Source: a virus (lineage: Duplodnaviria; Heunggongvirae; Uroviricota; Caudoviricetes). From it: a stretch of DNA of 64,000 nt. The stretch lies in IMG/VR virus record IMGVR_UViG_3300002220_006883; one strand, written 5' to 3'. The notes under the pieces were generated by a model, which saw nothing but the letters and a program-made list of their open reading frames with translations, did not search any database and was not told the origin of the DNA. Of the stretch, positions 9,575 to 57,074 are shown piece by piece (the first letter of the stretch is position 1; every line of letters starts with the position of its first letter). Position numbers and translations under genes: made by a program.

Positions 9575-9585
9575 GATTTTTTAGT

Positions 9586-14990: not shown

Positions 14991-15514
14991 TTTATATTTT
15001 CTAATTTCCATAATTCAATTTTTTTATCAAATTTAGAAAATATGTGAGTTGTAATTATATGAAGTAATGAGCTTTTTGATTTATTATATCTAATGGCTAA
15101 AGAGTTATATTTTTTTTGATAAGGCAACAATGTGCTTTCGGAAATTAATATTTCTTCAATTATTTGTTTATAATTGGAAATATTTTTTAATTGTGGAAAC
15201 TCTAAAAACAATACTTCAATTTTTAAAGCTAATTGAGTTATTTTTTCTTCACAAAAATATTCAGAACGAAACTCTTTTTCTTGTTTGAATTTTTGAGCTT
15301 GAGATCGTAATTGAACAACTTCTTTTAAAAAAGTTTGTTCATAATCCATTTTTTCCTCTACTTTGGTTATTAATGTTTCAAAACTTCTAAATCTTTTATC
15401 CAATAAAACGGATATAATTTTTCTCATTTTTAAAATTTGTTTTTCTTTAATGGTTAAATAACCATAAGATAAAAACAAATAAACCAAGATTCCACCTATA
15501 ATTTCAAAAATCAT
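14987..15514 (-). CDS. LemA-family membrane protein
   Basis: N-terminal TM helix; pattern …FPQLKN…SLAIRYNKS… resembles LemA. Confidence 0.55.
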   Translation of the reverse strand: MIFEIIGGILVYLFLSYGYLTIKEKQILKMRKIISVLLDKRFRSFETLITKVEEKMDYEQTFLKEVVQLRSQAQKFKQEKEFRSEYFCEEKITQLALKIEVLFLEFPQLKNISNYKQIIEEILISESTLLPYQKKYNSLAIRYNKSKSSLLHIITTHIFSKFDKKIELWKLENIN

Positions 15515-15633
15515 TTTTTTCCTTATTTTTTTATAATTACATATTATATTATTTTTTTAAAAAAGATCAAATTTTTATATAATAGATTTATTTATTAAAA
15601 TTAACTGTTATAATCTACATAAGGAGAAAAAAT

Positions 15634-16281
15634 ATGCATATATTTTCAACATTAGAGAAACTATTTAAAACTAAAGAGCCAGTAAAAATAGAAGAGAAAA
15701 AAATAGAACTTAATAATAATTCTAACTTAAGGAGAAATGAATCAAAAGTTAATAGTGTTAAATCTAAAAAGCCTTATATTGAAAAAAAGCCTAACTATGA
15801 AAAAGTAATAGATAAGAATACTTGTTATGTTTTGTTTCCTAAAGATGGAGATACTTTTGTGGGAATGCATAATAATGAAAAGAAAACCTTTCGTTTGGCA
15901 GGAATAAATACACCAGAAAAGGGACAAGCTGGTTCAAAAGAAGCTACTGATTTTTTAAGAGAAAATATTGGTAAAAAAGTAGTGTACTTAACTTTTTTGG
16001 GAAAAGATAAATATGAACGTGAAATTGTAGAGGTTTTTTTAGATAAAGAAAGAAAATTAAACTTAAATGAAAAATTAATAGAGATTGGTTTAGCTAAAAG
16101 TGAAAGATATAGGGATGCCAATGGAAATTATACACATTCAACAATGGAATATGTTAAGCATGAATTAAAAGAAAAGTTCGCATTACTAAATTCATATGAG
16201 CCAACAGATTCCCAAGCACAAACTGAAAATGTTGAAATAAATCCAACCCCTCCTAAAAAAAGATTTGGTAACAACAGATAA
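15634..16281 (+). CDS. thermonuclease (staphylococcal nuclease-like)
   Basis: SNase-like core …LAGINTPEKGQ…EREIVEVFL…. Confidence 0.65.
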   Translation: MHIFSTLEKLFKTKEPVKIEEKKIELNNNSNLRRNESKVNSVKSKKPYIEKKPNYEKVIDKNTCYVLFPKDGDTFVGMHNNEKKTFRLAGINTPEKGQAGSKEATDFLRENIGKKVVYLTFLGKDKYEREIVEVFLDKERKLNLNEKLIEIGLAKSERYRDANGNYTHSTMEYVKHELKEKFALLNSYEPTDSQAQTENVEINPTPPKKRFGNNR

Positions 16282-16319
16282 TTGACAAAAAAATTCTTTT
16301 GTAATAGGTTCATAAGATT

Positions 16320-16886
16320 ATGAGAGAAGATATTCAATTTACCTTAGAAGAATTAGATAAAATAAATTTAGTTCATTATATTCAAAGTTTATTTTTTGAA
16401 TATAATGAACTTTACTTAATTAATATCTGTATTCATAAATCATCAGTAATAGAAAAGGGTAAAAAAGTAGATGTGAAAAAAACCATAAAACCTAGCATTA
16501 CATTTAGGTATCAATCTTTTTATTGTGCATGGTTTAATGGTGGTGCATATATTGCTGAAGAATATGAAAAATTATTTGATTGTCAAAATAATAATTTAAC
16601 AAAAATAATTCAAAATTTTAATCCTATTCATTTTTATTTGCAGATAAACAATAAAAAAATAACATATAATGATTTTGAAGAAAAAATAATTAATGTAAAA
16701 GAATTACAAGAAGAAAAAATACCTAATATATTCGGAGAGGCTAATTTTATTAGATTTTGTCGTGATAGTTTTGAATCTGATTCTGATAATTTTCTTGGAT
16801 TAAAAATACTTTCAAAAAAATATGCACAAAACTTAAATAAGACTTTAATTGTAAATTCTAAAAAAGAAAAATGGATTAAAGTGTAA
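16320..16886 (+). CDS. hypothetical protein
   Basis: 188 aa ORF with no recognised motif. Confidence 0.45.
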   Translation: MREDIQFTLEELDKINLVHYIQSLFFEYNELYLINICIHKSSVIEKGKKVDVKKTIKPSITFRYQSFYCAWFNGGAYIAEEYEKLFDCQNNNLTKIIQNFNPIHFYLQINNKKITYNDFEEKIINVKELQEEKIPNIFGEANFIRFCRDSFESDSDNFLGLKILSKKYAQNLNKTLIVNSKKEKWIKV

Positions 16887-16903
16887 AAATTTCTTAGTCA
16901 AAA

Positions 16904-17395
16904 TTGACAAACAATAAAATTATATTAAGAATATATAAATTGTTAGCTATAAGAAGAAGAAGAAAAATGAAAAAAAGTATGAACAAACCAGTTCCATTAG
17001 CGAATAAAAAATTCTATAATACTTATAAAGGAAAAAATGAAAATAAGTATTTTTTTGTATTACCATGTATAACAATTTCTCCTAAAAAGAATTTAAATTG
17101 GGACATGACAATGAAATCTTATTTCTTCGCTTGGGGATATAAATTTATACAATTTAATGTTTGTGAAATTGTAAGTGACACAAGTCAAGAATTAACAAAA
17201 GAATATTTTGAATTATTAAAGAAATCCTTAAAAGATTCTGGATTAATAATATCAGATATGCAAGCTGCCTTAAGTTTTATTAAAAATAACATCTATTTAG
17301 TGAGTATATTGAGAAATTCAAATATAAGTCATCCATATGTAAAGAAAATATTAGTAAGTTATTTTCAAAATCAATCTTTTGTAACAATTGTCTAA
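16904..17395 (+). CDS. hypothetical protein
   Basis: 163 aa ORF with no recognised motif. Confidence 0.4.
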   Translation: MTNNKIILRIYKLLAIRRRRKMKKSMNKPVPLANKKFYNTYKGKNENKYFFVLPCITISPKKNLNWDMTMKSYFFAWGYKFIQFNVCEIVSDTSQELTKEYFELLKKSLKDSGLIISDMQAALSFIKNNIYLVSILRNSNISHPYVKKILVSYFQNQSFVTIV

Positions 17396-17508: not shown

Positions 17509-18720
17509 TTAAGGTGTTACACAACGATCACCATTCCAAGTTCCAACAATACAAACTTGGCAAACTTGACCATCAAAATTACCAATTCCATTATTTGATG
17601 GTCTAGAGCTTGTAGGGGGTAAGCCACTAGTGCAGTTATTTACATTAGTTGTAGTTCTTTGTGCTAAAGTGCTTAAGTTTGGAGCCCATACTGGAGTAGC
17701 TGCATTAGCTGCACTCCAAATATTATTAGGCACTTCTCTTCCAGCAACAAAAGTTCCTGAAGTAGAAACTCCAGCAGGAGTAGTAACTGTTATGCTTGTT
17801 CCTGCTAAAGTTCTACTTACTGATGCACTTGAGCTACCTGCTGGTAAAACGTCACATCTTAATTGATACATGTTCCAACCTTGACCTAGTGGACAATTTC
17901 CAGCACGTCCTTGTATGGCAGTTAAAGTATTAGTTGAATTACCAACAAAAGCTTTACATAATTTACCATCCCAAGATTGACCAGCAGGACATTCACAAGT
18001 AGATGAGGTAGCATTAAATGTCGCACCACCACTACATGTTGGTCCTGTAGATGTTATTGCACCAATAGGAGGGGCAATATAATATTTAGTTTCTTTATCT
18101 CTAAAGTGACCAGCAGCACCAGTTAGAGTAATTGGCTCTACACCACGTTTTGAAATATCTGTTGAAATCTTAACAATATTATTGGTAACTTGATTACATG
18201 CATTTGATGCAGTATTACTATCAACAACAGAAGCTCCTAAAGCCTTAACTTGTGTTCCATTAACTTGTAATACTTGAGAAATATTGGTGAATGATGGATT
18301 TGTTATAAACTTAGCACAAGCTTCTTGTGGAACACCATTAAATGTCAATTCAACTAGAGCAGTATTAGATACAGTAACACCAGCAAAAGTTACACTACCT
18401 CCCCACAAATTTTTAACAGTACTTGCTGAAGCTTTCATTTCTTCTGGAATAACATTAGCAGAAATTAATCTAGTTGGTGGATTAGTTGCCGCAGTTATTG
18501 TGGTTGAGCTTGTAGCTGCATTACTAGAATCATCAGAAAGACTCATAAAATTACTTTCTAATTGTTGTAGTATTTGAATAACATATTGTGATTGTCTTTG
18601 CACAGTAAAATTATTGTATTTTTTTACATATGAAGAGTAAACACCAGCACCAATAAGTGCTATTATTCCAACAACTAATATTGTTTCAACTAATGTAAAA
18701 CCTTTATTTTTTTTTCTCAT
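17509..18720 (-). CDS. large type IV pilin-like protein
   Basis: prepilin N-terminus MRKKNKGFTLVETILVVGIIALIGAG; 403 aa, T/S-rich, Cys-rich C-terminus. Confidence 0.8.
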   Translation of the reverse strand: MRKKNKGFTLVETILVVGIIALIGAGVYSSYVKKYNNFTVQRQSQYVIQILQQLESNFMSLSDDSSNAATSSTTITAATNPPTRLISANVIPEEMKASASTVKNLWGGSVTFAGVTVSNTALVELTFNGVPQEACAKFITNPSFTNISQVLQVNGTQVKALGASVVDSNTASNACNQVTNNIVKISTDISKRGVEPITLTGAAGHFRDKETKYYIAPPIGAITSTGPTCSGGATFNATSSTCECPAGQSWDGKLCKAFVGNSTNTLTAIQGRAGNCPLGQGWNMYQLRCDVLPAGSSSASVSRTLAGTSITVTTPAGVSTSGTFVAGREVPNNIWSAANAATPVWAPNLSTLAQRTTTNVNNCTSGLPPTSSRPSNNGIGNFDGQVCQVCIVGTWNGDRCVTP

Positions 18721-18834
18721 AATTATTCCACCATATATTTAAAATAGAATAAAATAAAAATAAAAAAAATCAAGAAAACAAATTAAATGATACTAAGTAA
18801 TATTCCTTTAACCATAATATTGTTAAAAAAAGAA

Positions 18835-18873
18835 AAAACCCCATTAGCATGTTGTAAACAATAATGGGGTTTG
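18835..18873 (-). terminator. rho-independent terminator after the Hsp70 gene
   Basis: AACCCCATTAGCATGTTGTAAACAATAATGGGGTT hairpin followed by a T-run on the minus strand. Confidence 0.6.
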
Positions 18874-18891
18874 CTTTTCACCAAGATGAAG

Positions 18892-20646
18892 TTACTGTAA
18901 TTTTTTATTTATTTCTTCTTCAAGAGATTTAACTTCACTTAAATTACTTAAGGTTTTTAATTTATTTTCAAAAAATGAATAGTCTTCTTCATTCAATTTG
19001 TTTTCTTTTTTATACTGATGTAAAAGATTGTCAATATTATTAATTGAATTAATGAGTTCTATTTTTTCTTCATCTTTACTCTTTTGTTCATTAGCTTCTT
19101 GAATAAGTTTATTTATTTCTTCTGTTGATAATCCAGAAGAAGCAGTTATTTTAATACTGTTTTCTTTTCCAGTAGATTGATCTTTTGCACTTACATGTAA
19201 AATACCATTAGCATCAATATCAAAAATAACTTCTATTTTAGGTGTGCCTTTAGGTGCTGGTGGGATACCGACTAAATTAAATTGACCTAAACTCTTATTA
19301 CCTTCAACTACTTTTCGTTCTCCTTGCAATACATGAATAGTTACTGCATCTTGATTATCACTTGCTGTAGAAAACACTTGAGATGCTTTAGTTGGAATAG
19401 TTGTATTTTTATTGATTAATGGAGTCATTACACCTCCCATAGTTTCAATACCTAATGTTAATGGTGTTACATCTAATAATAACACATCTTTAACATCACC
19501 CTTTAATACGGCACCTTGTATTGCAGCGCCTAAAGCAACAGCTTCATCAGGATTAATATCTTTTCTTGGTTCTGTTCCAAAATATTCTTTTACTTTATTT
19601 TGAACTAGTGGCATTCTTGTCATGCCACCAACTAATAAAACGGCTTTAATTTCTTGTGGTGTCTTTTTTGCATCTTGCATAGCTTGTTTAACTGCAATAA
19701 AGCTCTTTTCAACCAAATCTTCGACTAAAGATTCTAATTTGGCTCTAGTAATTTTTACCATTAAATGTTTTGGTCCGCTTGCATCAGCAGTAATATAAGG
19801 TAAATTAACTTCAGTTTGTGAACTAGAAGATAACTCAATTTTAGCTTTTTCAGCAGCATCTTTTAATCTTTGTAAAGCTAATGGATCTTTGGTTAAATCA
19901 ACACTTTGTTCCTTCTTAAATTCTTGAGAAATATAGTTTACTAAAACATTATCAAAATCTTCACCACCTAAAAATGTATCTCCATTTGTTGATAAAACTT
20001 CAAATTGTTTTTCTCCATCAATATCAATGATATCAATAATAGATATATCAAAAGTTCCACCACCTAAATCATATACAGCAATAGTTCCTTCAACATCTTT
20101 ATCTATTCCAAAAGCTAAAGCTGCGGCAGTAGGCTCATTTATAATACGCTGGACATTTAAGCCAGCAATTTTACCAGCATCTTTGGTAGCTTGTCTTTGA
20201 GAATCATTGAAATAAGCAGGAACAGTTATTACAGCATCAGTAATTTTTTCTCCCAAATAATCTTCAGCTATTTTTTTCATTTTAGATAAAATTAATGCAG
20301 AAATTTGAGCAGGAGCAGTTTTTTTCTTGTTTGCCATAACCCAAGCATCACCATTATCATGTTTTATTATTTCATAAGAGCTATGTTTAATAGCTTTTTC
20401 AACTTCTGCATCAGTAAATTTTCTACCAATTAAACGTTTGGTTGCAAAAAAAGTTTCTTTTGGATTTGTAATTGCTTGTCTTTTGGCTGGGGCCCCAACT
20501 AACGCTTCTCCATCAGAAGTATAAGCAACAATAGAAGCAGTGGTTCTTGCTCCTTCTTGATTCTCTAAAACTTTAACATTACCATTTTCTAAAATAGCAA
20601 TACATGAGTTGGTTGTTCCTAAATCAATCCCTATAATCTTAGACAT
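18892..20646 (-). CDS. dnaK: Hsp70 chaperone, DnaK family (short, 584 aa)
   Basis: [20 protein letters not shown] and related motifs; substrate-binding domain present; shortened lid. Confidence 0.85.
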
Positions 20647-22733: not shown

Positions 22734-23552
22734 TTAAAATTTTGTTTTTAATTTTGGTTTATTGTTTGCAGAATATTCTTCTGTTTTAGCTACAACTTTA
22801 TCATAAAATTGTTTCCATTTTTCTAATTCAGCAACATCATCTGGATCATTTAAATCATAATCTTCAATAGTTTCTTCATCATATGCAGGAAGAATCATTT
22901 CAAATGGTTGGTAGCCATTACCATCTTTTAATGTAGGGTTTGCACCTAATTCCATTAGTTTATCAAAAGATTTTTCTTTACCATGTCCACAAGCATAATG
23001 CATTACAGTTTGATCTGTAGATAAAAAGTTTTTTTCATTAACATTAAAGTTACACTCTTTAACTAAAAATTCCATCACTTCTGTAGATTGAGACATAGTA
23101 GCATAAAATAAACCAGTATTGCCCATTCCATCAGTATGAGTTACATCAACAGGGTTATGTGGGTTACTAATAAGATAAGATACAATATCTTTATTCGGAA
23201 TTTCACATGCTTTTAAAAAAGTATTTTCGCCATTTTTCATATAGGCATTAGGATTTGCTCCGTTTTTTAATGCAAATTCTAAAAACTCCATAGCACCTGG
23301 TAATAATTCATTAGTAAGTTCTTCTTCATCTTTTTCATTTTTTATTCTTTTAACTGCATATTGTGGAAAAAAGAATAAAAGATTATCAAATTCAGAGATT
23401 GGATCTTTTGATGTGGTTTTAGCAAAAGCTTTTAATTCATCAGTAGATTTCATTTTTTCTAAATCTTCTAATAATACTTCAAAATCTCCAGCTTTTAACA
23501 TTGCCCCTAAACTTTTATAGGTTTTTTTAACTTTTGGTTGGTTGTCACTCAT
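22734..23552 (-). CDS. ankyrin-repeat protein
   Basis: ANK-like repeats (…GANPNAY…, …GNTGLFYA…, …GANPTLKDGNG…). Confidence 0.65.
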   Translation of the reverse strand: MSDNQPKVKKTYKSLGAMLKAGDFEVLLEDLEKMKSTDELKAFAKTTSKDPISEFDNLLFFFPQYAVKRIKNEKDEEELTNELLPGAMEFLEFALKNGANPNAYMKNGENTFLKACEIPNKDIVSYLISNPHNPVDVTHTDGMGNTGLFYATMSQSTEVMEFLVKECNFNVNEKNFLSTDQTVMHYACGHGKEKSFDKLMELGANPTLKDGNGYQPFEMILPAYDEETIEDYDLNDPDDVAELEKWKQFYDKVVAKTEEYSANNKPKLKTKF

Positions 23553-23611
23553 TTGGTTTTTCCTTTTTAATTGATATAATTAATTATAACAATAATAAGA
23601 AAAAAAACAAA

Positions 23612-26332
23612 ATGAATTTTAAAATAAGAAAATCAGATAAAGCAAAGTTAGTTAGATCATTATTTGGGGCGATAAAAAGAGACAACATTAAAAGATTTGA
23701 AGAGTTAATAAATAACCATAGTTGGTTATTAGATTTTAAAAACAATAAACGTGAAAATATATTATTTTATGCTTTTGAAAACAATAGTAAAAAAATAATT
23801 GATTATGTTATAGAAAAAAAACCTAACTTTTTAAAAGAAAAAAACATTCTTAATATAAATATAATTCACGAATTGATATCTAAAAATTACCCGATAGATT
23901 ATTTTATAGAGAAACTTCACTTGTGGACTGAAGAAGAAAAAAATGTTCTTTTTTCAAATTGTGATCCCCAAGGTAATAATCTCTTATTAATGTCTGCAAA
24001 AAGTGGTAAAAAAGAAATATTGGATAAAGTAATAGAAATTTGTCCAGATTTTAAATTATATCAAAAGCATTCTAATTTTTATGGACAAAATATAGCACAT
24101 TTAATGTCTATTCATATGAAATCACAGTATGGTGATATATCTGAAATCTTAATGCCTGAGTTAATGATTCAATTAGATAATATCAATGGGTTTTCTCCAA
24201 TTATGTTATCTGCATATTATCAAGGCTCTAGAAACTTTATATCTTTTTTTAAATTATCCCCTAATAGTCAAAAATCATTTTTAGATAATGAATTAATTCA
24301 TTTTGCTGCTAATAATCCAAATATAAGAGTAATGCAATTTTTAATTGAAAATAAAATGTACTCCAATAATTTAAATAAATATGGTCAAACCCCTCTTAAT
24401 ATTGCATTATCAAAAGGATATTCTCACATAGCAAAAGAAATTTTATCATATAATGAAGATATAAATAAGGATGATTTTGTAATATCTGCAAAAATTGCAG
24501 ATAAAGATAATATTTTATTTGATGAAATATTAAATTTAAAGGTTCATAAAGAATTATCTCAAGAAGATAAAAATAAGTTTTTAGAAATGTTATTTTTACA
24601 TGGAAAATATAATGCAATTATTCAAGTAAAGGAAAATAAAAATACAGAACATTTTTTCAATGAAAATATTAATTTTTCTAGTTTGTTTACCAAAACAGTA
24701 GTAGGTAAAAAAGATATGAATAATAAAATTGATTTATTATTAGCAAATAAAGATAAATTAAACAAAGAAGAGGTTAAATCAGTATTTAAAGCATTAGAAA
24801 AGCTACCATCAAATCAAATTTTATCTATAATTAAAAAATCAACTTTGTTATCAAAAATAAAACAAGAAGATAATGTGGCATTAATTGCTTTAAGTTTAGA
24901 AAAAGGTATAAATCCATATTTGATAAGCAATACATTATCTTTACCAGTTAATGATGAATTGCAAAGCATAATAAAACAATCATTAAAAAATACTAAAAAT
25001 ATAGAAGAAGAAAAGCATTTAGGAAATATTGAATATTGGCTTGTATTATTTAAAGATAAAAAAATAGTGTTAAAACATTATGGAATGATCGCTGCTAAAT
25101 CAAAAGATCCATTTCATTTTATAGATGAAAAATTTAATTTCTTACCTAAAGAACAAAAAAAGGATTTAGTGTATTATACTATAACAGCACTATTTAAGAA
25201 AAATGAAGATATTTCAGAAAAGTCTATTAAAATTATAGAACAATACCCTAATTTATTGAGCAATGTGTATAGCGGAATCCTTAAAGTTGGAAAAATACCT
25301 TGCAATAAAAAATTAATAGAAATTTTAACAACCATAGAAAAACCAGTTATAAGTTCTAATGAGTTGGGTTATTTTTTCAACAAAACAAACGATAAGCATC
25401 AACAAGCTATTAATGTTGTAAAAGATACAATTAACTTATTTAATTTTAAAGATATCAAAAATATGCAGGAGTTTTGTCAACTATTAATATCAAATCAACA
25501 TCATCAAGAAATATTAGATTTAATTATAGATAAGGTTCAAGATAAAGATATTTTTATTGAAGCATATTTAAATAATGCAATAAACTTAAACAATACAGAT
25601 GAAATAATAAAACTAGTAATGCAACATTCAAATAGTAATGAAATTGCAAAAAATCTAATTTTGAAATCCATTCAAGATGATAATTTCAATAATGTAGAGT
25701 TATTAAAAGGGTTAAATAATACAAAATTAACCAAAGAAGACATATTAATTTTGGCTCAATCTTTTATAGATGACTCCAATTATTTTTCATGTGTAAAATT
25801 GCAAAAATGTTTTGAAGATAAATTTGACATAAACAAATTAGATTTAACTAAAATAAATTGGGAGAAAATAGAATTAAATTGCTCCACAATGAACAAAGAT
25901 GAAAGTTTTTTTGATTTTTTAAGTATAAATCAAGCTAAAATAACAGAAAAGAACTTAGAAAATATGAACAATAAATTTATGTTACAAATACGAGATAAAA
26001 ATATATCGTTTACAACTATTGATAAGTATTTACATTCTTTAAATAATTCAATTCATAAAATAGAACCATATGCTATGTTTGAAATTTGTTCTTATGTGTT
26101 GGAAAGACAGTTTTTAAATAATCCTATGGCTCAATTTCTATCTCAAAAAACTTTTGAAAGTATCTTTGATTTGGTTGCAAAAAGTACAAAGGGGGATTTA
26201 TTTGAAAAACTACAAAATCATAAACATTATCAAATTATTGATATAACTTCTAGAGTAATTATGGATAAAGAGATTTTAGAAAGTGATTTAAAAATAAAAC
26301 CAAGCAAAAATAAAAAAATTAATAAAATTTAA
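23612..26332 (+). CDS. large ankyrin-repeat-containing protein (about 907 aa from the ATG)
   Basis: multiple ANK-like repeats in the N-terminal half; the ORF-track start at 23534 is TTG, and I prefer the in-frame ATG (MNFKIRK). Confidence 0.55.
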   Translation: MNFKIRKSDKAKLVRSLFGAIKRDNIKRFEELINNHSWLLDFKNNKRENILFYAFENNSKKIIDYVIEKKPNFLKEKNILNINIIHELISKNYPIDYFIEKLHLWTEEEKNVLFSNCDPQGNNLLLMSAKSGKKEILDKVIEICPDFKLYQKHSNFYGQNIAHLMSIHMKSQYGDISEILMPELMIQLDNINGFSPIMLSAYYQGSRNFISFFKLSPNSQKSFLDNELIHFAANNPNIRVMQFLIENKMYSNNLNKYGQTPLNIALSKGYSHIAKEILSYNEDINKDDFVISAKIADKDNILFDEILNLKVHKELSQEDKNKFLEMLFLHGKYNAIIQVKENKNTEHFFNENINFSSLFTKTVVGKKDMNNKIDLLLANKDKLNKEEVKSVFKALEKLPSNQILSIIKKSTLLSKIKQEDNVALIALSLEKGINPYLISNTLSLPVNDELQSIIKQSLKNTKNIEEEKHLGNIEYWLVLFKDKKIVLKHYGMIAAKSKDPFHFIDEKFNFLPKEQKKDLVYYTITALFKKNEDISEKSIKIIEQYPNLLSNVYSGILKVGKIPCNKKLIEILTTIEKPVISSNELGYFFNKTNDKHQQAINVVKDTINLFNFKDIKNMQEFCQLLISNQHHQEILDLIIDKVQDKDIFIEAYLNNAINLNNTDEIIKLVMQHSNSNEIAKNLILKSIQDDNFNNVELLKGLNNTKLTKEDILILAQSFIDDSNYFSCVKLQKCFEDKFDINKLDLTKINWEKIELNCSTMNKDESFFDFLSINQAKITEKNLENMNNKFMLQIRDKNISFTTIDKYLHSLNNSIHKIEPYAMFEICSYVLERQFLNNPMAQFLSQKTFESIFDLVAKSTKGDLFEKLQNHKHYQIIDITSRVIMDKEILESDLKIKPSKNKKINKI

Positions 26333-43097: not shown

Positions 43098-44627
43098 TTA
43101 AAGTTTCTTTTGTTTTTTTCTAGTAGGAGAAGCTGTTAATAAAGTATATTCTTCTTTAATTTCTTCAGGAGTTCTTCCTTTATATTTTTCCATAACTTCT
43201 TTGATAGAATCACCTAAATCTTTAAATTGACTATCAATATTAGATTTACCCCAAATATAAGATTTATTTTTTGAGTCAGTAATAGAATCAAGAGTTTTTT
43301 GAATAGAACTATTCATGCTTCCTTGTGCAATAACTAAAGCAAAAACGGCTCCTATACGTTCGGAAATTTGTAATGTGGCTCTATCAACATCAATTTCGTT
43401 CTTTTTAACCAAATTAACTGCTTTATCAACCATATTTTTCATATTACTCCAATTGTAATATAATAGGTCTGTTCCAGTTAAATTATAATTTTTATTCATT
43501 AAGTTTTTATCATTAATAGAACCTAAAAAAGAAGCTTCTTGAGCACTTTTACTACTGAGTTCATTAACCCCTTTAGCTGCCATTTCTTCATAAATAACTT
43601 TATTATCCTCTGATAAAAACTTACCTAAAAGTTCAATATTTCTTTTAACAAAATTGTTTTTACCAGGATTAATAGATACTATGTCAGTAATAATTTCGTC
43701 TACTATTTGTTTGTTTGAATTATTAGTTTCAGATAATTTAATCATGTAATTGAAAACTTTTTCTTGCTCAGAAAATTCTTTTGCTAACCACTCTTTATTT
43801 AATAATGGAAGGAAAAACTCAAATATTTTATTATTACTTTTTAAATAATTACTTACAGTTACAGAGTAATTTTTATTTAAAATTGATTTAGAGCCACTAA
43901 TATTTTGTTCTTTAAAATCTTTCTCTAATACTAAAAGTTGACTAACAGATTTTAAATCTTCTTTTAATTTTTGAGTGTTTCCTGAAGTTATCATATCAGT
44001 AAAATCACCACCATCAATATGAAAGGCAGTAGCATCAAATAAACGTCTTGGGCTAATTTCTTTTTGAATATTTGCTGGTTGATTATTCCACCATTGACAG
44101 AAAATAGCACCTACCTGTCCAAAAGATTGTTTAAAAAATTCAATATCAACCTTATAAGGAAACTTTATTTGTATTTGGAATCTATCTCTAACTGCTGGGT
44201 CTAATGGTTCAACATGATATTCTTCTTCTTCATTATGAGGATTGATTGCTGCCCAGATCATTTTTATATTATAAGGTCTACCATTAATGGTTTTGAATTG
44301 AATTAACTCCATAAGTGCATTCATGACTTTTTTAGGAGCACGATTTAATTCATCAATAAAAATAACATCATACTTATCGTCTACAAAATCTTCAGGTGGA
44401 ATTAATCTTAACACTTCTTTTCCATCGGAGCGAGTTACAGTACTAGGAACACCAACTAAATCAGTCCAAGGGTCCATTGTTGGTGCAGAAAAATATTTAA
44501 CTCTTAATCCAGCTTTTTCAAAAGTTTTAAAAATAACTGAAGTTTTACCTACACCTCTTTCTCCTTCAAATAAAACATTGAAATTTTTATCTGCATATAA
44601 ATCTAATTTTTTTTGATCAACTAACAT
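43098..44627 (-). CDS. MoxR-like AAA+ ATPase
   Basis: Walker A EGERGVGKTS, Walker B IFIDELNRA, sensor region; 509 aa; 1 nt from the VWA gene. Confidence 0.75.
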   Translation of the reverse strand: MLVDQKKLDLYADKNFNVLFEGERGVGKTSVIFKTFEKAGLRVKYFSAPTMDPWTDLVGVPSTVTRSDGKEVLRLIPPEDFVDDKYDVIFIDELNRAPKKVMNALMELIQFKTINGRPYNIKMIWAAINPHNEEEEYHVEPLDPAVRDRFQIQIKFPYKVDIEFFKQSFGQVGAIFCQWWNNQPANIQKEISPRRLFDATAFHIDGGDFTDMITSGNTQKLKEDLKSVSQLLVLEKDFKEQNISGSKSILNKNYSVTVSNYLKSNNKIFEFFLPLLNKEWLAKEFSEQEKVFNYMIKLSETNNSNKQIVDEIITDIVSINPGKNNFVKRNIELLGKFLSEDNKVIYEEMAAKGVNELSSKSAQEASFLGSINDKNLMNKNYNLTGTDLLYYNWSNMKNMVDKAVNLVKKNEIDVDRATLQISERIGAVFALVIAQGSMNSSIQKTLDSITDSKNKSYIWGKSNIDSQFKDLGDSIKEVMEKYKGRTPEEIKEEYTLLTASPTRKKQKKL

Positions 44628-45772: not shown

Positions 45773-46126
45773 TTATAATTTATAGCCAAGTTGTTTTTCA
45801 AGTTTTGACTTAGCTTTCTTTTTTAATTTTCGTTCTTCTTTAGTCATGGTGTTTTCACTAGCTTCGTTTTCATTTTCTTGACCAAGTAAAAATTCTTTTT
45901 TTGCTTCTCTAATGCTACCTTGATCTAAAAGCAATTCAGCTAACATGTAATGAGCAAAACATGATTTTGGATGATCTTTTAAATAATCAGTTAATGTTGG
46001 AATGTTATAACGATAACTAGAATCTAAAATACTAGAATCTTCTCCAACCAAAGTAGTATTCATAGTTTCTTCAATAGAACCATATTCTTTTTTATTACCT
46101 AATCCAAAAAATTTCAAAAAGCTCAT
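45773..46126 (-). CDS. hypothetical protein, paralog of 46536-47036
   Basis: ~60% identical C-terminal ~100 aa (IEETMNTT…LTD(Y/F)L…FAHYM(L/I)AEL…KKLKKKAK). Confidence 0.5.
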   Translation of the reverse strand: MSFLKFFGLGNKKEYGSIEETMNTTLVGEDSSILDSSYRYNIPTLTDYLKDHPKSCFAHYMLAELLLDQGSIREAKKEFLLGQENENEASENTMTKEERKLKKKAKSKLEKQLGYKL

Positions 46127-46535: not shown

Positions 46536-47036
46536 TTATTTAACTAGTTTATAGCCAAGTCTTTTCTCAACCTTGGCTTTAGCTTTTTTCTTTAGTTTCT
46601 TTTCTTCATTAGTTAAAATTTGCTCTGGAAATTTAGCTTCCATTTTTTGACCAATCATAAATTCTTTTCTTGCTTTAGTTATATCTCCATTATCTAAATA
46701 TAATTCAGCTATCATATAATGAGCAAAAGCAGATTGTGGTTCTACTCTTAAAAAGTCAGTAAGAGTGGCAATAGTATAATAATTAGCAGCACCACTAATT
46801 TCTGGGTCTAATCCAGCCATAGTAGTATTCATTGTTTCTTCAATTCCATGATAAGACTTATTTTGAAATTTTTTATTTAACTTCTTTTTTTGTTTTAAAT
46901 TCAGTAAATATTTTTTAATCTTGATAAGTGGAGAAAAAATAAATAAAAATATTTTTTTAAAAAAATCAAAAATAACAAAGAAAATAGAGCCAAATAAATG
47001 AACTAAAGCGATAGCTATTTGTTTTAATATATCCAT
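46536..47036 (-). CDS. hypothetical membrane-anchored protein, paralog of 45773-46126
   Basis: N-terminal TM helix followed by the shared C-terminal domain. Confidence 0.5.
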   Translation of the reverse strand: MDILKQIAIALVHLFGSIFFVIFDFFKKIFLFIFSPLIKIKKYLLNLKQKKKLNKKFQNKSYHGIEETMNTTMAGLDPEISGAANYYTIATLTDFLRVEPQSAFAHYMIAELYLDNGDITKARKEFMIGQKMEAKFPEQILTNEEKKLKKKAKAKVEKRLGYKLVK

Positions 47037-47750: not shown

Positions 47751-47804
47751 ATAAATTCCAATTTAAAAAAAGATAAGACACTTTTTTATTTTTTTCAATA
47801 GAAA

Positions 47805-47823
47805 ATGGAGCCTTTGGCTCCAT
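47805..47823 (-). terminator. terminator hairpin after the tRNA array
   Basis: ATGGAGCCTTTGGCTCCAT just 3' of the last tRNA. Confidence 0.55.
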
Positions 47824-47829
47824 TTAATT

Positions 47830-47920
47830 TGGCAGTGAGTAAGAGATTCGAACTCTTGTGCCGGTTTCCCGACCATCATCTTTCCAGGATGTGCCTTTAA
47901 GCCAACTCAGGCAACTCACT
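47830..47920 (-). tRNA. tRNA-Ser (anticodon GGA), class II
   Basis: revcomp AGTGAGT…(anticodon loop CTGGAAA)…long variable arm…AAGAG-TTCGAAT-CTCTT-ACTCACT-G-CCA; encoded CCA. Confidence 0.75.
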
Positions 47921-47926
47921 ATAATC

Positions 47927-48019
47927 TGGAGGAAAGCTAGGGTCCCGACCCCTATCCGTATTTTCTACGAACAAACACATTTCCAGTGTGTTCCAGTTGC
48001 CCCGACTGGTTAACTTTCC
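47927..48019 (-). tRNA. tRNA-Ser(GGA)-like with non-canonical T-loop
   Basis: acceptor GGAAAGT/GCTTTCC-T-CCA; D stem CCA/TGG; anticodon arm ACACA-CTGGAAA-TGTGT; variable arm GTTCGTAGAAAATACGGA; T arm TAGGG-GTCGGGA-CCCTA. Confidence 0.5.
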
Positions 48020-48020
48020 T

Positions 48021-48110
48021 TGGCAGAGGATAACAGAATCGAACTGTCACCGATTCATCATCGATGGTACGGTTTTCAAGACCGCTTAAACACCATGTTC
48101 ACTATCCTCT
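48021..48110 (-). tRNA. tRNA-Ser (anticodon UGA)
   Basis: acceptor AGAGGAT/ATCCTCT-G-CCA; anticodon arm GCGGT-CTTGAAA-ACCGT; T arm GACAG-TTCGATT-CTGTT; long variable arm. Confidence 0.75.
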
Positions 48111-48121
48111 AAACTAAAAAC

Positions 48122-48214
48122 TGGCAGAGGTGGTGAGATTCGAACTCACGCGGGCTTTTTAGTTCCCCTAGCTGTTTTCAAGACAGCCCCCTTAAACCAC
48201 TTGGGTACACCTCT
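48122..48214 (-). tRNA. tRNA-Ser (anticodon UGA), second divergent copy
   Basis: acceptor AGAGGTG/CACCTCT-G-CCA; anticodon arm GCTGT-CTTGAAA-ACAGC; T arm GTGAG-TTCGAAT-CTCAC. Confidence 0.75.
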
Positions 48215-48215
48215 A

Positions 48216-48305
48216 TGGCAGAAGACGTCGGTCCCGACCCGAATCCGTATTTCTACGAACCAACTGATTAGCAGTCAGCGGCTAAACCCTTTAGCTTCAT
48301 CTTCT
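48216..48305 (-). tRNA. tRNA-Ser(GCU)-like with non-canonical T-arm
   Basis: acceptor AGAAGAT/GTCTTCT-G-CCA; anticodon arm GCTGA-CTGCTAA-TCAGT; shares module GTTCGTAGAAATACGGAT..GGGTCGGGACC with 47927-48019. Confidence 0.5.
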
Positions 48306-48310
48306 AAATT

Positions 48311-48400
48311 TGGCGGTGGGCCAGGGAGTCGAACCCTGTGAGCCATTTCCATGACCCTACGGATTAGCAATCCGCTGCATTACCGTTCTGCCAGCCCACC
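48311..48400 (-). tRNA. tRNA-Ser (anticodon GCU)
   Basis: acceptor GGTGGGC/GCCCACC-G-CCA; anticodon arm GCGGA-TTGCTAA-TCCGT; T arm CAGGG-TTCGACT-CCCTG. Confidence 0.8.
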
Positions 48401-48431
48401 ATTTATATCTTTTTATTTAATCTCCTATTTT

Positions 48432-48468
48432 GTTTCAACAATAAAAAAAGCACTCAGTTGTTACTTGA
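48432..48468. terminator. bidirectional terminator upstream of the tRNA array
   Basis: perfect hairpin AGCACTCAGTTGTTACTTGAGTGCT flanked by A7 and T5. Confidence 0.7.
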
Positions 48469-48623
48469 GTGCTTTTTAAAAAATCCTGTCAAAAATTTTT
48501 AGCAATAAGCACCCCTGTTCATTGAAGAACTTGAAGATGAACTAGAGCTAGAAATTTGAACTAAAAACATTTTTCAACCTTTAAAATTAATTGAGTTAAT
48601 TATTACATATCTTTTTAAGTCTG

Positions 48624-49136
48624 TCAATAAGAATTTATATTTTTTTTAATAATTTTTTTTAATAATTTTTTTTCTAAATTTTCGTTTAATAAAATTTGAT
48701 TTAAATAGTCATAGTTATGCTTTATGTCTTTTGCTTTTTTTAATTGTTCTTTGAAGTTACTATCTAAATAATTAACAAAATTTTCCATAACATATGAAAA
48801 ACAAGAATTTATTTCAGTAGAATTTTTTAAAAAATCATCTTTATTACTAGAATTCAACATGATTGAATTATGTGGTCGCTCTAAATCATTGGCCCATGCC
48901 CAGCAAACCTCATCAAACTCTTTATAAGACTGTTTTTTATTGGGAACCCATATAAGTAACATGAAATAAAGATCAGGAAGGTTGATTAAAGAATATTCCT
49001 TAATATGATTTTCTAAAATTTTAATATTAGAATAATCACCTGGTGGAAAAATTAAGTCACTAATTATTTTCGTAGTGTATATTGTTTCATAATATTTGCA
49101 TATTTTAAATTGTATATTCATTTTTGGTGCTTGCAT
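48624..49136 (-). CDS. hypothetical protein
   Basis: 170 aa ORF. Confidence 0.45.
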   Translation of the reverse strand: MQAPKMNIQFKICKYYETIYTTKIISDLIFPPGDYSNIKILENHIKEYSLINLPDLYFMLLIWVPNKKQSYKEFDEVCWAWANDLERPHNSIMLNSSNKDDFLKNSTEINSCFSYVMENFVNYLDSNFKEQLKKAKDIKHNYDYLNQILLNENLEKKLLKKIIKKNINSY

Positions 49137-49189: not shown

Positions 49190-49591
49190 ATGAAAGAATT
49201 TATTAAAGTGCCATTTGCAGAAAAAGAAAAAGTTAAAGAGTTAGGTGCTCGTTGGGATAAAGATATGAAGTCTTGGTATGTTCCCGAAGATGCAGATAAG
49301 GAAAAGTTTTCTAAATGGGAAAGACATGACCCATCTACTGCACCACAAATAGACCCAAATTTAACTAGAACTTATTTGAATGTGCCATTTGCTGATAAAG
49401 ATGCTGTTAAATCATTAGGGGCTCGTTGGGATGGCGATAAAAAACAATGGTATTTTTTATCTGACAAAGATCAAAGTTTATTTTCAAAATGGATAGACGG
49501 CTCATCTAATAGTACCCCAAAGAAACAACCAATTCAACAAAACAATGATTTGTCTGATGAATTGGATGATATTTTAAAATTAGGTGATTAA
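49190..49591 (+). CDS. small protein with tandem GARWD…KxWY motif domains
   Basis: two ~40 aa repeats: VPFAEKEKVKELGARWDKDMKSWY and VPFADKDAVKSLGARWDGDKKQWY. Confidence 0.5.
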   Translation: MKEFIKVPFAEKEKVKELGARWDKDMKSWYVPEDADKEKFSKWERHDPSTAPQIDPNLTRTYLNVPFADKDAVKSLGARWDGDKKQWYFLSDKDQSLFSKWIDGSSNSTPKKQPIQQNNDLSDELDDILKLGD

Positions 49592-51911: not shown

Positions 51912-53222
51912 ATGTTAAGTGTTATTAAAGAAATTATAGCAAAAAGAAAATCTATATCTTTATTAAAAAAAGGGGTTCCTTTTAATGATGATAGGTTTAA
52001 CTCTTTTAGAAAAAACAAAGCTATTATCCTAATAGCTTTAGATTACGATTTAAACACATTAAATTATGTTGAAAAAAGTATATTGTTAGATAAAGACATT
52101 ATACTTAAATCCATTCAAAAAAATCCATTAAATCTTCAGATGCATTCTGATGAAGAAATTATTGGCAATAAAGAAATTATATTAAATGCAATTAAGTTGG
52201 ATTATAAAAACATAAGGTTCGCTTCAGAAAATTTAAAAAATGATATTTCTTTTGCTAAAGAAATTTTAATTAAGGAACCAGATTGCCTTGAGTTTTTTTC
52301 AAACAAAATAAAAGACAATAAGGAAATTATTGACTTAGTTTTAAGTAAATTTTTTCATGGAAAAATTTTTAAATATATTGGTGAAAAATTTAAAGATGAT
52401 AAAGATGTTGTGTTAAAAGAAATGACTCATCATGGCGATATGTTTGAGTTTGTAAGTGATAGATTGAAGGCAGATGAAGAGGTTTTGATAAGTTCTTTAA
52501 AGAGCAGTAATGGTAATTCTATTATCTTTGCCAGTCCGACACTTAAATCTAATATGGATATAGTAAAAAATGCACTACAATATATAAATTATTCAAGCAT
52601 AAATGTTTTTAAAGATTTGGGGATGTTGGCTCAATCAAATAAAGAAATTGCATTACTGGCAATAAGCAAAAAACCTGAATCTTATTTGTATGTAAGTGAA
52701 GATTTAAAGAACGATATAGATATAGTTAAAACAGCAATCAAATTAGACGGTTCTTTGTTTAAATTTATACCCTTAAGTTTTAAACAAAACAAAGAAATAT
52801 TTTTATTGGCTATCAAGCAATATGCTCTAGCTATTGAATTTGCTACAGAAGAATTTAAAAATAATCTAGAAGTTGCTAAAATAGTATTGGCTAGTAAATA
52901 TGATAAAACCTTGTCTTTCTTTAGTGATGAAATAAGAGATAACAAAGAACTTGTATTGTTCGCTGTTAAAAATCATGCATCTCAATTAGAGTTTGCCAGT
53001 AAAAGATTAAAGATGGATTATGATTTGGTAAAGCAAGCTATAACTCAATCAGGAGTTACATATCGTTTTATTGATGAGAATTTAAAGTCAGATCCATATT
53101 TAATTAAAAAAGCAATAGAATGTAGCACTGGTTTAGCATTAAACTATATTGATGAAAAATATTTAAATCATCCAGAAATAAAAGAATTTGTTTATTCTTA
53201 TAAAAATAGATACAGAAATTAG
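51912..53222 (+). CDS. DUF4116-repeat protein
   Basis: many ~30 aa repeats of form (K/N)(E/D)(I/V)(I/V)L.A(I/V)K….L.FAS..LK.D. Confidence 0.55.
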
Positions 53223-55121: not shown

Positions 55122-57074
55122 TTAAATTAACGAGGCTTCTGTGTGATTTCTCACACCATCTTCTTTTGATTTAGCTAATTTAGCATTGGGGAGAAGTTCA
55201 GTAACGACCCCTATTTTATATTCATCTTCAACTATATTTTTAACTAACTTATAGTTGATGGTTTTAGTTCTACTGCATTGATAAACATTATCTTTGCCTA
55301 ACTTATTTCTTATGGTTTTATTTAATAACCTTGATTTAATGATTTTTGCTGCATTACTGTCTGCATTTATCTTTACTTTGTGATTAGCACAGGCTGGATT
55401 TCTACAGATAAATTCTTCTTGCTTAGTTCTGTTATTTCTAGATATGTAATGACAGACTGAACATTCCTGACTGGTATAAGCTGGATTGATAAAATGGGTA
55501 AAAATACCTTGTTTTTCAGCCATACTAGCTACCCAATGTTTTATCTGTCCTAATCTCAATAGTCTAGATAAACGACTGTATTTAATCTTTATACCTTTAT
55601 GTTCATAATAGCTTTTATCATTCAGTATATTCAAATCTTCAAATACTAAATGTAAGATATCTTTACTTTTCCAATCCTTGATTAATCCAGATAAATAAGT
55701 TTTTAATAAACTTTCATTACTGCGTAGTAATTTCTCATAACGGTATTTTTGTTTAACAGTTCTTTCTTCTGTTTTGATACTGAATAATTCTACAATTTCA
55801 TTTAAATTATCTATAAATCTATTTTTATTGTTGGAATTTAATATATCAGAATAAGTATGACCATTAGAATCAGCTATTAAATTGTGTTTTAAATTTAAAT
55901 CACAACCTAATGTATTTAATTCTGTTGGATTAATATTGGTTTTATTGATTAAATTATTTTCAATAACTTTAGCCAGATTATTCTGTTGTTCATAATTAAA
56001 GATTATATGAATTTTTCTGCTCTTAGAGTTATTCCTTAATTGTTCATATTTAATCAATATTTGTGGATTATCTTTAATTAATACATTATCTATGGATTTA
56101 CCAATACTTTTTAATCTAGATTTATTAAAAATTAATGGTAAATAGATGAAATTATCTTCATTATATTTATCTAGTAATTCTTGATAATTATCTTTAGTTT
56201 TAGTTTTATTATTTAACTTAGGTTCTCTAGAAGAAAGAGTTGATACTTTTCTAACTTTAATAAAATATTGATAATCTTTATTAGATAAATCTTTCACAAT
56301 GGATAATTGAGCATTATCTAAATGTCTAGCATGGGTTCCAGTTTGATAAATGGCTAATTTAACCTTGCTGATTAACCTTAGTTTTTTATCAATAATTAAC
56401 TGAATTAATCTATTGTAAATTAAAGGTTTATTGATTTTAAACTGTTTAATTTCATGATAGTTAGCAATAAGTTTGTTATAGGATTTAATTAATCTTTCTA
56501 ATTTACTGATTTCTTTATTAATATCTTCAGTTGAATTATCTTTATTATCCAATAAGTTTTTATTATGACTTAATTCAAGGTTATATTTAGATAAATAAGT
56601 AGTAAGTTGAATTAGTTTATCATCAATATTGAAATCTAAAGCATAAAACTTATTATTAACGATTAAGTTAGACTGAGAATTAATAAATAAAGCTATATTA
56701 TTGATATTAGATTTAGACTTAGAAACAATGAATTTAGCTTTATCTAAATATCTGGTAGTAGTCTCAGAATAATGCCCTGCAATCTCCTGGAATATAGTTT
56801 GTCTTTCCCAAGAATTTAACTGAGAATTATCTAAGAATTTATAATGAGTAAGAAAAGGCTTATAATCTGAGACTAAAGATAATAGATTATCATAGCAATA
56901 TTGAGAAATGATATTTTTATAGTTTTTAGTATTATCAATTAAAGCGAAAAATTCATTAAATTTATCAACATTACAAACTCTAGAATCAATCGTAACACGT
57001 GATGACTTAACATCAGGTTTAAACAAGTTAATGTTTTTATTCTTAACGATTGATTTCTTTAATTTCTTCATCAA
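55122..57074 (-). CDS. tnpB: TnpB/Cas12-like RuvC nuclease, 650 aa, with N-terminal extension (IS200/IS605 OrfB-type)
   Basis: RuvC-I LGCDLN (D392), RuvC-II VFEDLN (E479, 87 aa spacing as in canonical TnpB), CxxC…CxxC zinc finger, RuvC-III INADSNAAKII (D572). Confidence 0.8.
   Translation of the reverse strand: MMKKLKKSIVKNKNINLFKPDVKSSRVTIDSRVCNVDKFNEFFALIDNTKNYKNIISQYCYDNLLSLVSDYKPFLTHYKFLDNSQLNSWERQTIFQEIAGHYSETTTRYLDKAKFIVSKSKSNINNIALFINSQSNLIVNNKFYALDFNIDDKLIQLTTYLSKYNLELSHNKNLLDNKDNSTEDINKEISKLERLIKSYNKLIANYHEIKQFKINKPLIYNRLIQLIIDKKLRLISKVKLAIYQTGTHARHLDNAQLSIVKDLSNKDYQYFIKVRKVSTLSSREPKLNNKTKTKDNYQELLDKYNEDNFIYLPLIFNKSRLKSIGKSIDNVLIKDNPQILIKYEQLRNNSKSRKIHIIFNYEQQNNLAKVIENNLINKTNINPTELNTLGCDLNLKHNLIADSNGHTYSDILNSNNKNRFIDNLNEIVELFSIKTEERTVKQKYRYEKLLRSNESLLKTYLSGLIKDWKSKDILHLVFEDLNILNDKSYYEHKGIKIKYSRLSRLLRLGQIKHWVASMAEKQGIFTHFINPAYTSQECSVCHYISRNNRTKQEEFICRNPACANHKVKINADSNAAKIIKSRLLNKTIRNKLGKDNVYQCSRTKTINYKLVKNIVEDEYKIGVVTELLPNAKLAKSKEDGVRNHTEASLI

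Follow-up and report, generated by a model that had tools for sequence, protein, structure and literature searches.

What governs the expression of a set of transfer RNA (tRNA) genes that all serve one amino acid, and why would such a set hold two genes for every anticodon? The question is raised by IMG/VR record IMGVR_UViG_3300002220_006883, a stretch of 64,000 nucleotides (nt) that was analysed as a whole and is referred to here as the window. Its minus strand carries, from position 48400 to 47830, six serine tRNA (tRNA-Ser) genes arranged head to tail, which we numbered t1 to t6 from 5' to 3' on that strand. Their anticodons follow each other in the order GCU, GCU', UGA, UGA', GGA' and GGA, the prime marking a non-canonical gene. 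Judging from the sequence and from predicted folds, we consider it probable that ribosome stalling at serine codons switches on this polycistronic tRNA-Ser operon via a leader-peptide attenuator. The locus would form one transcription unit, in which a promoter, a serine leader peptide and an attenuator precede the six tRNA-Ser genes and a terminator closes the array.

A preliminary description of the region had missed a serine leader open reading frame (ORF) and an antiterminator just upstream of the array, and with these the meaning of the preceding terminator changes. That description had placed a bidirectional terminator before the tRNA genes; the hairpin at 48477-48443 (minus strand) is indeed a terminator, but its role is that of a part of the attenuator. 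The region starts with a predicted sigma-70-type promoter (48627-48599, minus strand; TTGACA-17-AATAAT, with a TG upstream that makes it an extended -10), which reached 11/12 in the promoter scan. At 48624-48627 (minus strand), the TGA stop codon of an upstream orphan gene overlaps the -35 hexamer TTGACA. A Shine-Dalgarno site (AAAGG; 48582-48578, minus strand) lies 7 nt before the ATG of the leader ORF, which extends on the minus strand from the ATG at 48570 to the stop codon at 48501-48499 and encodes, in 23 codons, MFLVQISSSSSSSSSSMNRGAYC*.

The most conspicuous part of this ORF is an uninterrupted run of ten serine codons (48552-48523, minus strand; TCT AGC TCT AGT TCA TCT TCA AGT TCT TCA). 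The run draws on both the UCN and the AGY box and covers all three isoacceptor groups that are encoded downstream, and its codon mix (TCT 4, TCA 3, AGT 2, AGC 1) matches the serine codon usage of the genome (40/27/23/7%, respectively). It is the sole homo-amino-acid run of at least seven residues in any frame of the 64-kilobase (kb) window, and serine runs of at least eight occurred in 0 of 200 shuffles. Within codons 19-22 of the leader lies region 2, the 5' half of the antiterminator (48507-48515, minus strand; GGGGUGCUU), which can pair either with the serine-codon segment (1:2) or with region 3. Regions 3 and 4 form the terminator hairpin at 48477-48443, AAAAAGCACUCAAGU-AACA-ACUGAGUGCUUUUUUU, which is followed by a U-run. 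This hairpin matched Rfam weakly, and then only a generic terminator-like small RNA; no Rfam leader or T-box family was detected at threshold, and no T-box even at E<=10 between 47500 and 48800.

How might the position of a ribosome on the leader affect the terminator? In constrained in silico folds that lacked a ribosome, the serine-codon segment paired with region 2 and the 3:4 terminator formed. When a ribosome footprint was set on serine codons 2-8, region 2 paired with region 3 (AAGCACUC), which is the 5' arm of the terminator. With the footprint at the stop codon, region 2 was covered and the terminator alone could form. This footprint-dependent behaviour was the same in all three sequences that were folded, the window and the two related loci L047 and L023. 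The 2:3 and 3:4 duplexes amounted to -12.1 and -15.9 kcal/mol in the window, to -15.1 and -17.2 kcal/mol in L047, and to -10.7 and -12.3 kcal/mol in L023. Eight terminator pairs shared by the three sequences are formed in each of them. Two positions show compensatory changes (U-A to C-G, the change seen in L047, and C-G to U-A), and at one of these positions region 2 keeps a G able to pair with U or C. The six core pairs of the antiterminator are invariant in all three sequences.

The related loci were reached by different routes. A scan of public metagenomes with the module common to t2 and t5 (TACGGATNNGGGTCGGGACC) returned one true relative, L023 (in its extended form L038), a 72-kb phage-like contig of 24% GC from NCBI assembly GCA_013565675.1; all 11 genome matches and 10 of the 11 metagenome matches to the module were single chance matches in high-GC coding DNA. 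Scans of viral collections with the module, the leader pattern and a GGA' pattern gave nothing or chance matches only. A search for homologues of RlpA, whose gene rlpA lies in the same region of the window, identified one close relative with the array, L030, which has the same six genes, and the orphan gene upstream of the leader led to L047, which belongs to the same lineage as L030. The neighbour gene in L023 is itself an orphan. Three further contigs of the same species (L001-L003) are identical to the window and so are uninformative.

Both relatives retain the upstream unit. The -35 and TATG..TAAT blocks of the promoter are kept in L047 and L023, and the leader ORF of the window and that of L047 are identical at 71 of 72 nt (one Ile to Val exchange) despite diverged neighbour genes. 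L023 has a homologous leader ORF, MFFNLSSSSSSSSSEKMIGAIC*, with nine serine codons in a different order, and its blocks follow each other as TATTGACA, TATG..TAAT, AAAGG, AAAAATGTTTTT, the nine serine codons, GGTGCT, a Cys codon with the stop, AAGCAC and GGTGCTTTTTTT. The nine-serine run is the only run of at least six in 20 kb of that contig. The terminator of L023 was found by the scan as well. Its U-run ends only about 10 nt before the first tRNA, so that the array there can be transcribed only by passing the terminator. No flanking gene is shared between the window array and the L023/L038 array and there is no synteny, which argues that the unit of promoter, leader, attenuator and array is conserved independently of its surroundings. 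On the minus strand of L023, positions 4037-4114 gave a weak match to the Rfam Phe_leader family over the serine leader and terminator (25.3 bits, E = 0.14); it is below threshold and has a leader-attenuator-like shape.

These comparisons also bear on a simpler explanation, according to which the tRNA operon is constitutive: the upstream hairpin would terminate or insulate the upstream gene, the serine-run ORF would either go untranslated or specify some unrelated small peptide, for example the precursor of a modified peptide, and a separate promoter would lie downstream of the hairpin. The terminator is strong, translation of the leader is predicted only, and the 42-nt AT-rich spacer between terminator and t1 contains a weak promoter-like site (48408-48436, minus strand; TTGAAA-17-TAAAAA) with an equivalent in L047 (CTGAAA-18-TATAAA). 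However, the consensus promoter is placed between the stop codon of the previous gene and the hairpin, and L023 has neither such a spacer nor room for a promoter after the terminator. Moreover, the serine run is kept at the amino-acid level with differing codons and order, in an unrelated context and again before tRNA-Ser genes; region 2 is complementary to the 5' arm of the terminator in all three sequences; and no peptide-modifying enzymes are encoded nearby. We regard constitutive expression as improbable.

Under control by an attenuator, a ribosome would translate the 23-codon leader while RNA polymerase transcribes the leader region. If charged tRNA-Ser of any one group became scarce (GGA for UCU/UCC, UGA for UCA/UCG, or GCU for AGU/AGC), the ribosome would stall in the ten-serine run; region 2 would then be free to pair with region 3, the terminator would be blocked, and RNA polymerase would read through into the tRNA genes. 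With plentiful Ser-tRNA, the ribosome would get to the stop codon, 6 nt past region 2, and cover region 2, so that the 3:4 terminator would form and transcription stop. In the absence of a ribosome, sequestration of region 2 by the serine-codon segment would lead to termination too. The net effect would be a negative feedback by which the supply of tRNA-Ser is fitted to the decoding demand.

Classical leader-peptide attenuators include trpL, hisL, leuL, thrL, pheL and ilvL, as well as pheM for pheST. The serine leader is like them in its promoter-proximal short ORF with a run of cognate codons, in the mutually exclusive 1:2, 2:3 and 3:4 pairings and the intrinsic terminator, and in a stop codon just past region 2, with the position of the ribosome choosing the fold. 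It differs in that serine would be sensed, for which we found no described attenuator, in that the target would be tRNA genes rather than biosynthetic enzymes or a synthetase, and in that the regulatory codons span two codon boxes and three isoacceptor groups. T-box riboswitches follow a like logic, in that a leader senses tRNA charging and controls terminator read-through into genes serving translation with that amino acid. A T-box binds uncharged tRNA directly and translation is not involved, whereas here the sensor would be a different one, no T-box model matches, and the host is not Firmicute-type. Literature searches in open-access papers found no serine leader peptide and no attenuation of tRNA genes. 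As far as we found, a serine leader-peptide attenuator governing tRNA genes is new, whereas the (8/4) tRNA-Ser genes described below are of a known kind.

What, then, would such a switch turn on? The existence of six tRNA-Ser genes, as proposed in the preliminary description, was borne out: ARAGORN called five of the six as tRNA-Ser (gct, tga, tga, gga, gga), in agreement with the anticodons given for these five, and the gene it missed, t2 (GCU'), is supported by its fold, by an orthologue and by conservation in the sister lineage. All six genes encode the CCA at their 3' end. The spacers measure, from 5' to 3', 5, 1, 11, 1 and 6 nt, in place of the 6, 1, 11, 1 and 5 nt given before. Neither a promoter nor a terminator signal was found between the array genes in the promoter/terminator scan, and together with the spacers of 1-11 nt this supports the earlier suggestion of a single polycistronic unit. 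The terminator that had been noted downstream of the array is real as well (47802-47825, minus strand; -15.1 kcal/mol, z = -4.4), and it is kept in L047 with one loop change.

The six genes are of two kinds. Canonical are t1 (48400-48311, GCU; 7/5), t3 (48214-48122, UGA) and t6 (47920-47830, GGA), all on the minus strand, which were called by ARAGORN and passed the gathering threshold of the Rfam tRNA model (RF00005; 29 bits) with 54.3, 57.6 and 43.7 bits, respectively. The remaining three, also on the minus strand, are t2 (48305-48216, GCU'), t4 (48110-48021, UGA') and t5 (48019-47927, GGA'). In energy folds, each of them has an acceptor stem of 8 base pairs (bp), a T-stem of 4 bp and a D-stem of 5-6 bp, and t2 forms a complete cloverleaf; these 8/4 folds account for their low or absent scores with the tRNA models. 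Thus, t2 reached only 18.5 bits with RF00005, t5 had no Rfam match at E<=10, RF00005 included, and the best Rfam model for t4 was that of the selenocysteine tRNA (tRNA-Sec; RF01852) with 43.9 bits, under its gathering score of 47. The variable arm (V-arm) stems comprise 7 bp. The D-stem is 6 bp long in t2 and 5 bp long in t4 and t5, and t5 has in addition a 6-bp anticodon stem. Position 73, the discriminator, is a G in t2 and t4 and a U in t5 and in L023d and L023e, the orthologues of t2 and t5 with which the tRNA-Ser cluster of L023 ends. As had been claimed, t2 and t5 share a 3' module (48260-48230 and 47972-47941) consisting of the V-arm and the T-loop GUCGGGA. Four canonical genes had been counted previously; there are only three, because t4 has a normal T-loop (UUCGAUU) on an abnormal body with an A8:U eighth acceptor pair. 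The anticodon loops of t2, t4 and t5 are ordinary.

In an alignment of five sequences of the t2/t5 family, the 8/4 cloverleaf was paired to 99.3%; both partners had changed in 17 of the 30 pairs, including all 6 pairs of the D-stems. The eighth acceptor pair is formed in all five sequences, as G-C, A-U or U-A, while the competing 7/5 arrangement, with a fifth T-stem pair, can form in only two of the five; a 7/5 fold is ruled out for t2 by this covariation. The cloverleaf of the t4 family was paired to 99.5%, with 15 pairs changed on both sides, and t5 fits the 8/4 fold in the joint alignment. The D-loops are not uniformly tetraloops, with 3 nt in t2 and t4, 7 nt in t5 and 4 nt in the phage rV5.

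Are the pairs of genes with the same anticodon duplicates of each other, as had been suggested? They share 60% (t1-t2), 63% (t3-t4) and 57% (t5-t6) identity, which equals the background among tRNA-Ser genes and excludes a recent duplication, while for each odd gene an odd gene of another genome is closer, at 74-78% identity. By this measure, the array consists of two different, interleaved kinds of tRNA-Ser and not of a duplicated family. Each anticodon in the operon is predicted to be represented by an ordinary tRNA-Ser (7/5) and by a Sec-like one (8/4) of the allo-tRNA type. A gene conversion between t2 and t5, which had been raised as a possibility, remains plausible for the lineage of the window: t5 has the V-arm and T-loop of t2, and its orthologue L023e carries a different V-arm and a normal TTCGATT T-loop.

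Members of this class have been described before. Allo-tRNAs are defined by an acceptor/T branch of 12 bp that is divided 8/4 or 9/3, together with a long V-arm, a Sec-like D-arm and a G or U at position 73. Genes for (8/4) tRNA-Ser with serine anticodons were reported in phages, proteobacteria and Clostridia, and those allo-tRNAs that were tested accepted serine and functioned in translation in E. coli (Mukai et al., Nucleic Acids Res 2017, PMC5389517). With their 12-bp branch of predicted 8/4 split, long variable arm, long Sec-like D-stem, G73 or U73 and serine anticodons, t2, t4 and t5 fit this description, and the proteobacterial and phage genes of the group are missed or mis-scored by tRNA predictors, as here. 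The arrangement in the window differs from that group in having three such genes, one per serine anticodon, interleaved with three canonical isoacceptors in one operon, in the T-loop GUCGGGA of two genes, in D-loops of 3-7 nt without a strict tetraloop, and in the 6-bp anticodon stem confined to t5. No toxin-antitoxin genes are associated with the array here, and PMC5389517 does not mention a serine leader attenuator. Based on their serine identity features (long variable arm, G73 or U73, and G2:C71), the odd tRNAs are most likely charged by seryl-tRNA synthetase (SerRS) and used in translation.

The shape of the odd genes might alternatively point away from translation: they could be decaying pseudogenes, seryl donors for cell-envelope or secondary-metabolite enzymes, components of a Sec-like conversion pathway, or regulatory decoys. 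Their low or absent general tRNA scores, the unusual T-loop of t2 and t5 and the Sec-like shape would fit such roles, and E. coli reporters showed no activity for some natural allo-tRNAs (PMC5389517). Decay, which had been considered for the variant copies, is contradicted by their conservation. Compared with the L030/L047 sister lineage, the tRNAs of the window have 516 of 518 positions unchanged, both changes falling into loops, and t2 in particular has 88 of 89 positions identical in L030. Across the same split, about 8 changes have accumulated in the 24 nt of spacers, rlpA is 86.5% identical (74.5% at third codon positions), RlpA is 87% identical and the upstream orphan gene about 70%. That the odd genes stayed nearly unchanged where spacers and flanking genes diverged is contrary to what is expected of pseudogenes; their stems are intact and their CCA is encoded. 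Towards the distant orthologues, t2 is 74% identical to L023d with compensatory changes in every stem, and t5 is 77% identical to L023e.

Like the odd genes, bacterial tRNA-Sec (RF01852) has an extended acceptor stem, a long D-stem with a small loop and a long variable arm, and L023e, like t4, scores about 40-44 bits on the Sec model. An identity as tRNA-Sec was nevertheless rejected: the anticodons GCU, UGA and GGA read serine codons and not UGA, the acceptor/T branch has 12 and not 13 bp, the scores are below threshold, and no selA, selB or selD was found within the 64-kb window. A donor role outside the ribosome is at odds with the lack of a Fem-type or other tRNA-dependent transferase gene nearby, and for tRNA-like regulatory RNAs, also proposed at the outset, we found no supporting evidence. 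Other (8/4) tRNA-Ser and allo-tRNAs work in translation (PMC5389517). We hold it to be highly improbable that the three odd genes are something other than translational tRNAs.

Several points weigh against the account of a stalling-controlled operon with translationally active 8/4 members. The evidence for the switch is computational and comes from three independent sequences of two lineages, and two stem positions supply all the covariation in the switch. The window terminator is more stable than the antiterminator; switching therefore depends on kinetics, as in classical attenuators. The promoter-like site in the spacer before t1 could provide basal expression independent of the attenuator. 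More transcription of tRNA genes is no help if serine itself, and not its tRNA, is limiting, and other tRNA-Ser genes may exist elsewhere in the genome. As to the odd genes, both the 8/4 and the 7/5 pairing (A:U vs G.U) are invariant in t4 and its phage relatives, so that covariation does not separate them, and for t5 taken alone 7/5 is possible as well. For the GUCGGGA T-loop of t2 and t5 (G54, G58), we found no functional precedent that could be verified.

Where could such a set of genes have come from? The suggestion that it is phage-derived is supported to the extent that at least t4 has a link to phages; t1, t3 and t6 show only generic similarity, of 74-77%, to assorted phage tRNA-Ser genes. 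Over its full length, t4 shares 78-82% identity with the tRNA-Ser(UGA) of rV5-like Vequintavirinae, T5-like and D6-like phages (137 records), and among 5,426 E. coli genomes it matched only tRNA-Ser genes of phage-plasmids and none on a chromosome. It falls into a family of tRNA-Ser genes found in rV5-, T5- and P1/D6-like phages, with whose members it shares the A8:U eighth acceptor pair, the 4-bp T-stem, a D-stem of 5 bp closed by a small loop, the G73 and the CCA. Unlike the phage genes, which sit in mixed tRNA clusters, t4 is part of a serine-only operon on the chromosome of a low-GC, Betaproteobacteria-like genome. The phage tRNA-Ser(UGA) genes were flagged by their annotators as difficult to call. 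Most rV5-like phage genomes lack an annotation of the t4-like gene, and the annotations that exist come from ARAGORN only (e.g. PP925834, 125876-125966; NC_019517, 61643-61732). The same t4-like gene as in Escherichia Vequintavirus phages is carried by 18 records of about 137 kb labelled 'Campylobacter phage'.

The L023/L038 contig adds a second connection to phages. It consists mostly of orphan genes and encodes an RNA ligase, a metallophosphoesterase, a nuclease and an RNase H of phage families. The first three, at L038 3066-3728 (phrog_14301, 1e-46), 15361-16941 (2e-31) and 17915-19030, are located within 9 kb of the array, a grouping that recalls phage tRNA-repair gene sets. The L023 array itself shows a tandem duplication of about 280 bp (3405-4032, minus strand; L038 11750-12400), which has produced UGA-GCU, AGA-GCU and a truncated pseudo-UGA copy and includes a tRNA-Ser with the unusual anticodon AGA. 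Its canonical genes lack an encoded CCA and its two 8/4 genes encode UCCA, which suggests different origins of the two kinds of genes. The only link between the loci at the protein level is an unclassified repeat protein of the window (38196-38768), which is 31-43% identical to two L023 proteins (6796-7257 and 9483-10055) and may hint at a phage-host relationship.

These connections allow a variant of the attenuator account, which refines it and is not strictly exclusive with it. The attenuator would be real and part of an inducible rescue cassette of phage origin. It would sense the loss of tRNA-Ser to tRNA-targeting nucleases of toxins or anti-phage defences and express a full set of serine decoders, including disguised 8/4 and GUC-loop forms that escape cleavage. 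In its favour, the t4 family is found in many phages and phage-plasmids, the only distant relative of the module resides on a phage-like contig near RNA ligase, metallophosphoesterase and nuclease genes, the module is kept without flanking synteny, and the leader samples all three decoding groups. Evasion of anticodon nucleases has been proposed for phage tRNAs, and tRNA-Ser is among the targets of some of these enzymes (PMC10264068); a prokaryotic Schlafen nuclease cuts at the T-loop UUC motif (PMC13462974), which is GUC in t2, t5 and L023d. However, no nuclease, toxin-antitoxin or defence gene was identified beside the window array and its region is no recognisable prophage. Moreover, t4 keeps a normal T-loop, the anticodon loops of the odd tRNAs are ordinary, the nuclease resistance of any array tRNA is purely predicted, and the canonical genes may be the housekeeping copies of the cell. 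On balance, we think this variant rather unlikely. Equally tentative, and if anything a little more doubtful, is the broader idea of a self-regulating, horizontally mobile module for rescue of serine decoding that is shared by phages and their hosts, in which the poly-serine leader would detect stalling caused by nucleases and half of the decoders, being disguised, would survive the attack.

The window is a bacterial chromosome segment of about 26% GC, with ligA, dnaK, nrdA, nrdB, mltB and genes for a chemoreceptor and a pilin, next to many orphan, ankyrin, Sel1, DUF4116 and DUF5710 proteins, and the closest named relatives of its RlpA are from Chitinibacteraceae (Betaproteobacteria). A prophage location of the array found no support, as the window gave weak PHROG matches only and no structural genes. 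Near the array, no genes for SerRS, the Sec pathway, tRNA-dependent transferases, toxins or defence were found in the window, and the stretches beyond its ends held nothing relevant. In four members of the clade, whose NrdB is 91% identical, no tRNA lies at a distance of up to 10 kb from rlpA, which indicates that gene order is fluid in this clade.

Other features of the window were recorded alongside. It encodes a 932-amino-acid (aa) ankyrin protein (23534-26332), a tandem-DUF5710 protein (49190-49591) and a seven-repeat DUF4116 protein (51912-53222); this set, among orphans and at 26% GC, suggests an undescribed, possibly host-associated lineage. A 650-aa protein of the TnpB/Cas12f-like RNA-guided endonuclease family (55122-57074, minus strand; NF040570, 3e-19; PF07282 TNB domain; PHROG transposase) is unusually long for TnpB. 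At 41717-44627 (minus strand), an AAA ATPase (509 aa) lies beside a 459-aa protein that combines DUF2201 metallopeptidase and VWA domains; the two have weak phage-family matches, and the pair is found between rlpA and mltB in the window genome only. Two paralogous small proteins of 117 and 166 aa (45773-46126 and 46536-47036, minus strand), which have a TPR-like C-terminal half in common, lie on either side of a DUF883 gene that follows closely downstream of rlpA.

In bacteria, tRNA levels are commonly held to follow growth rate and stringent control at promoters. If the attenuator works as proposed, a cis-acting sensor of the decoding speed of one amino acid would set the transcription of its own tRNAs, which would represent a new regulatory principle, a supply/demand homeostasis specific for one isoacceptor family. 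Even if defence plays no part, the locus would then be the first example of a tRNA operon that adjusts its output, by feedback, to how fast its own codons are decoded; leader-peptide attenuation would be extended to serine and to RNA genes, and synthetic biology would gain a small and portable part. The (8/4) tRNA-Ser class, of which little is understood, gains a defined context, in which its members are paired with a canonical isoacceptor, co-transcribed and conserved, so that their function becomes testable; the purpose of the odd copies may be the evasion of tRNA-cutting defences, for which the literature provides one lead. Finally, the relationship to phage tRNA-Ser genes, together with the phage-like contig and its RNA-repair-type enzymes, ties the locus to the question of why phages carry tRNAs.

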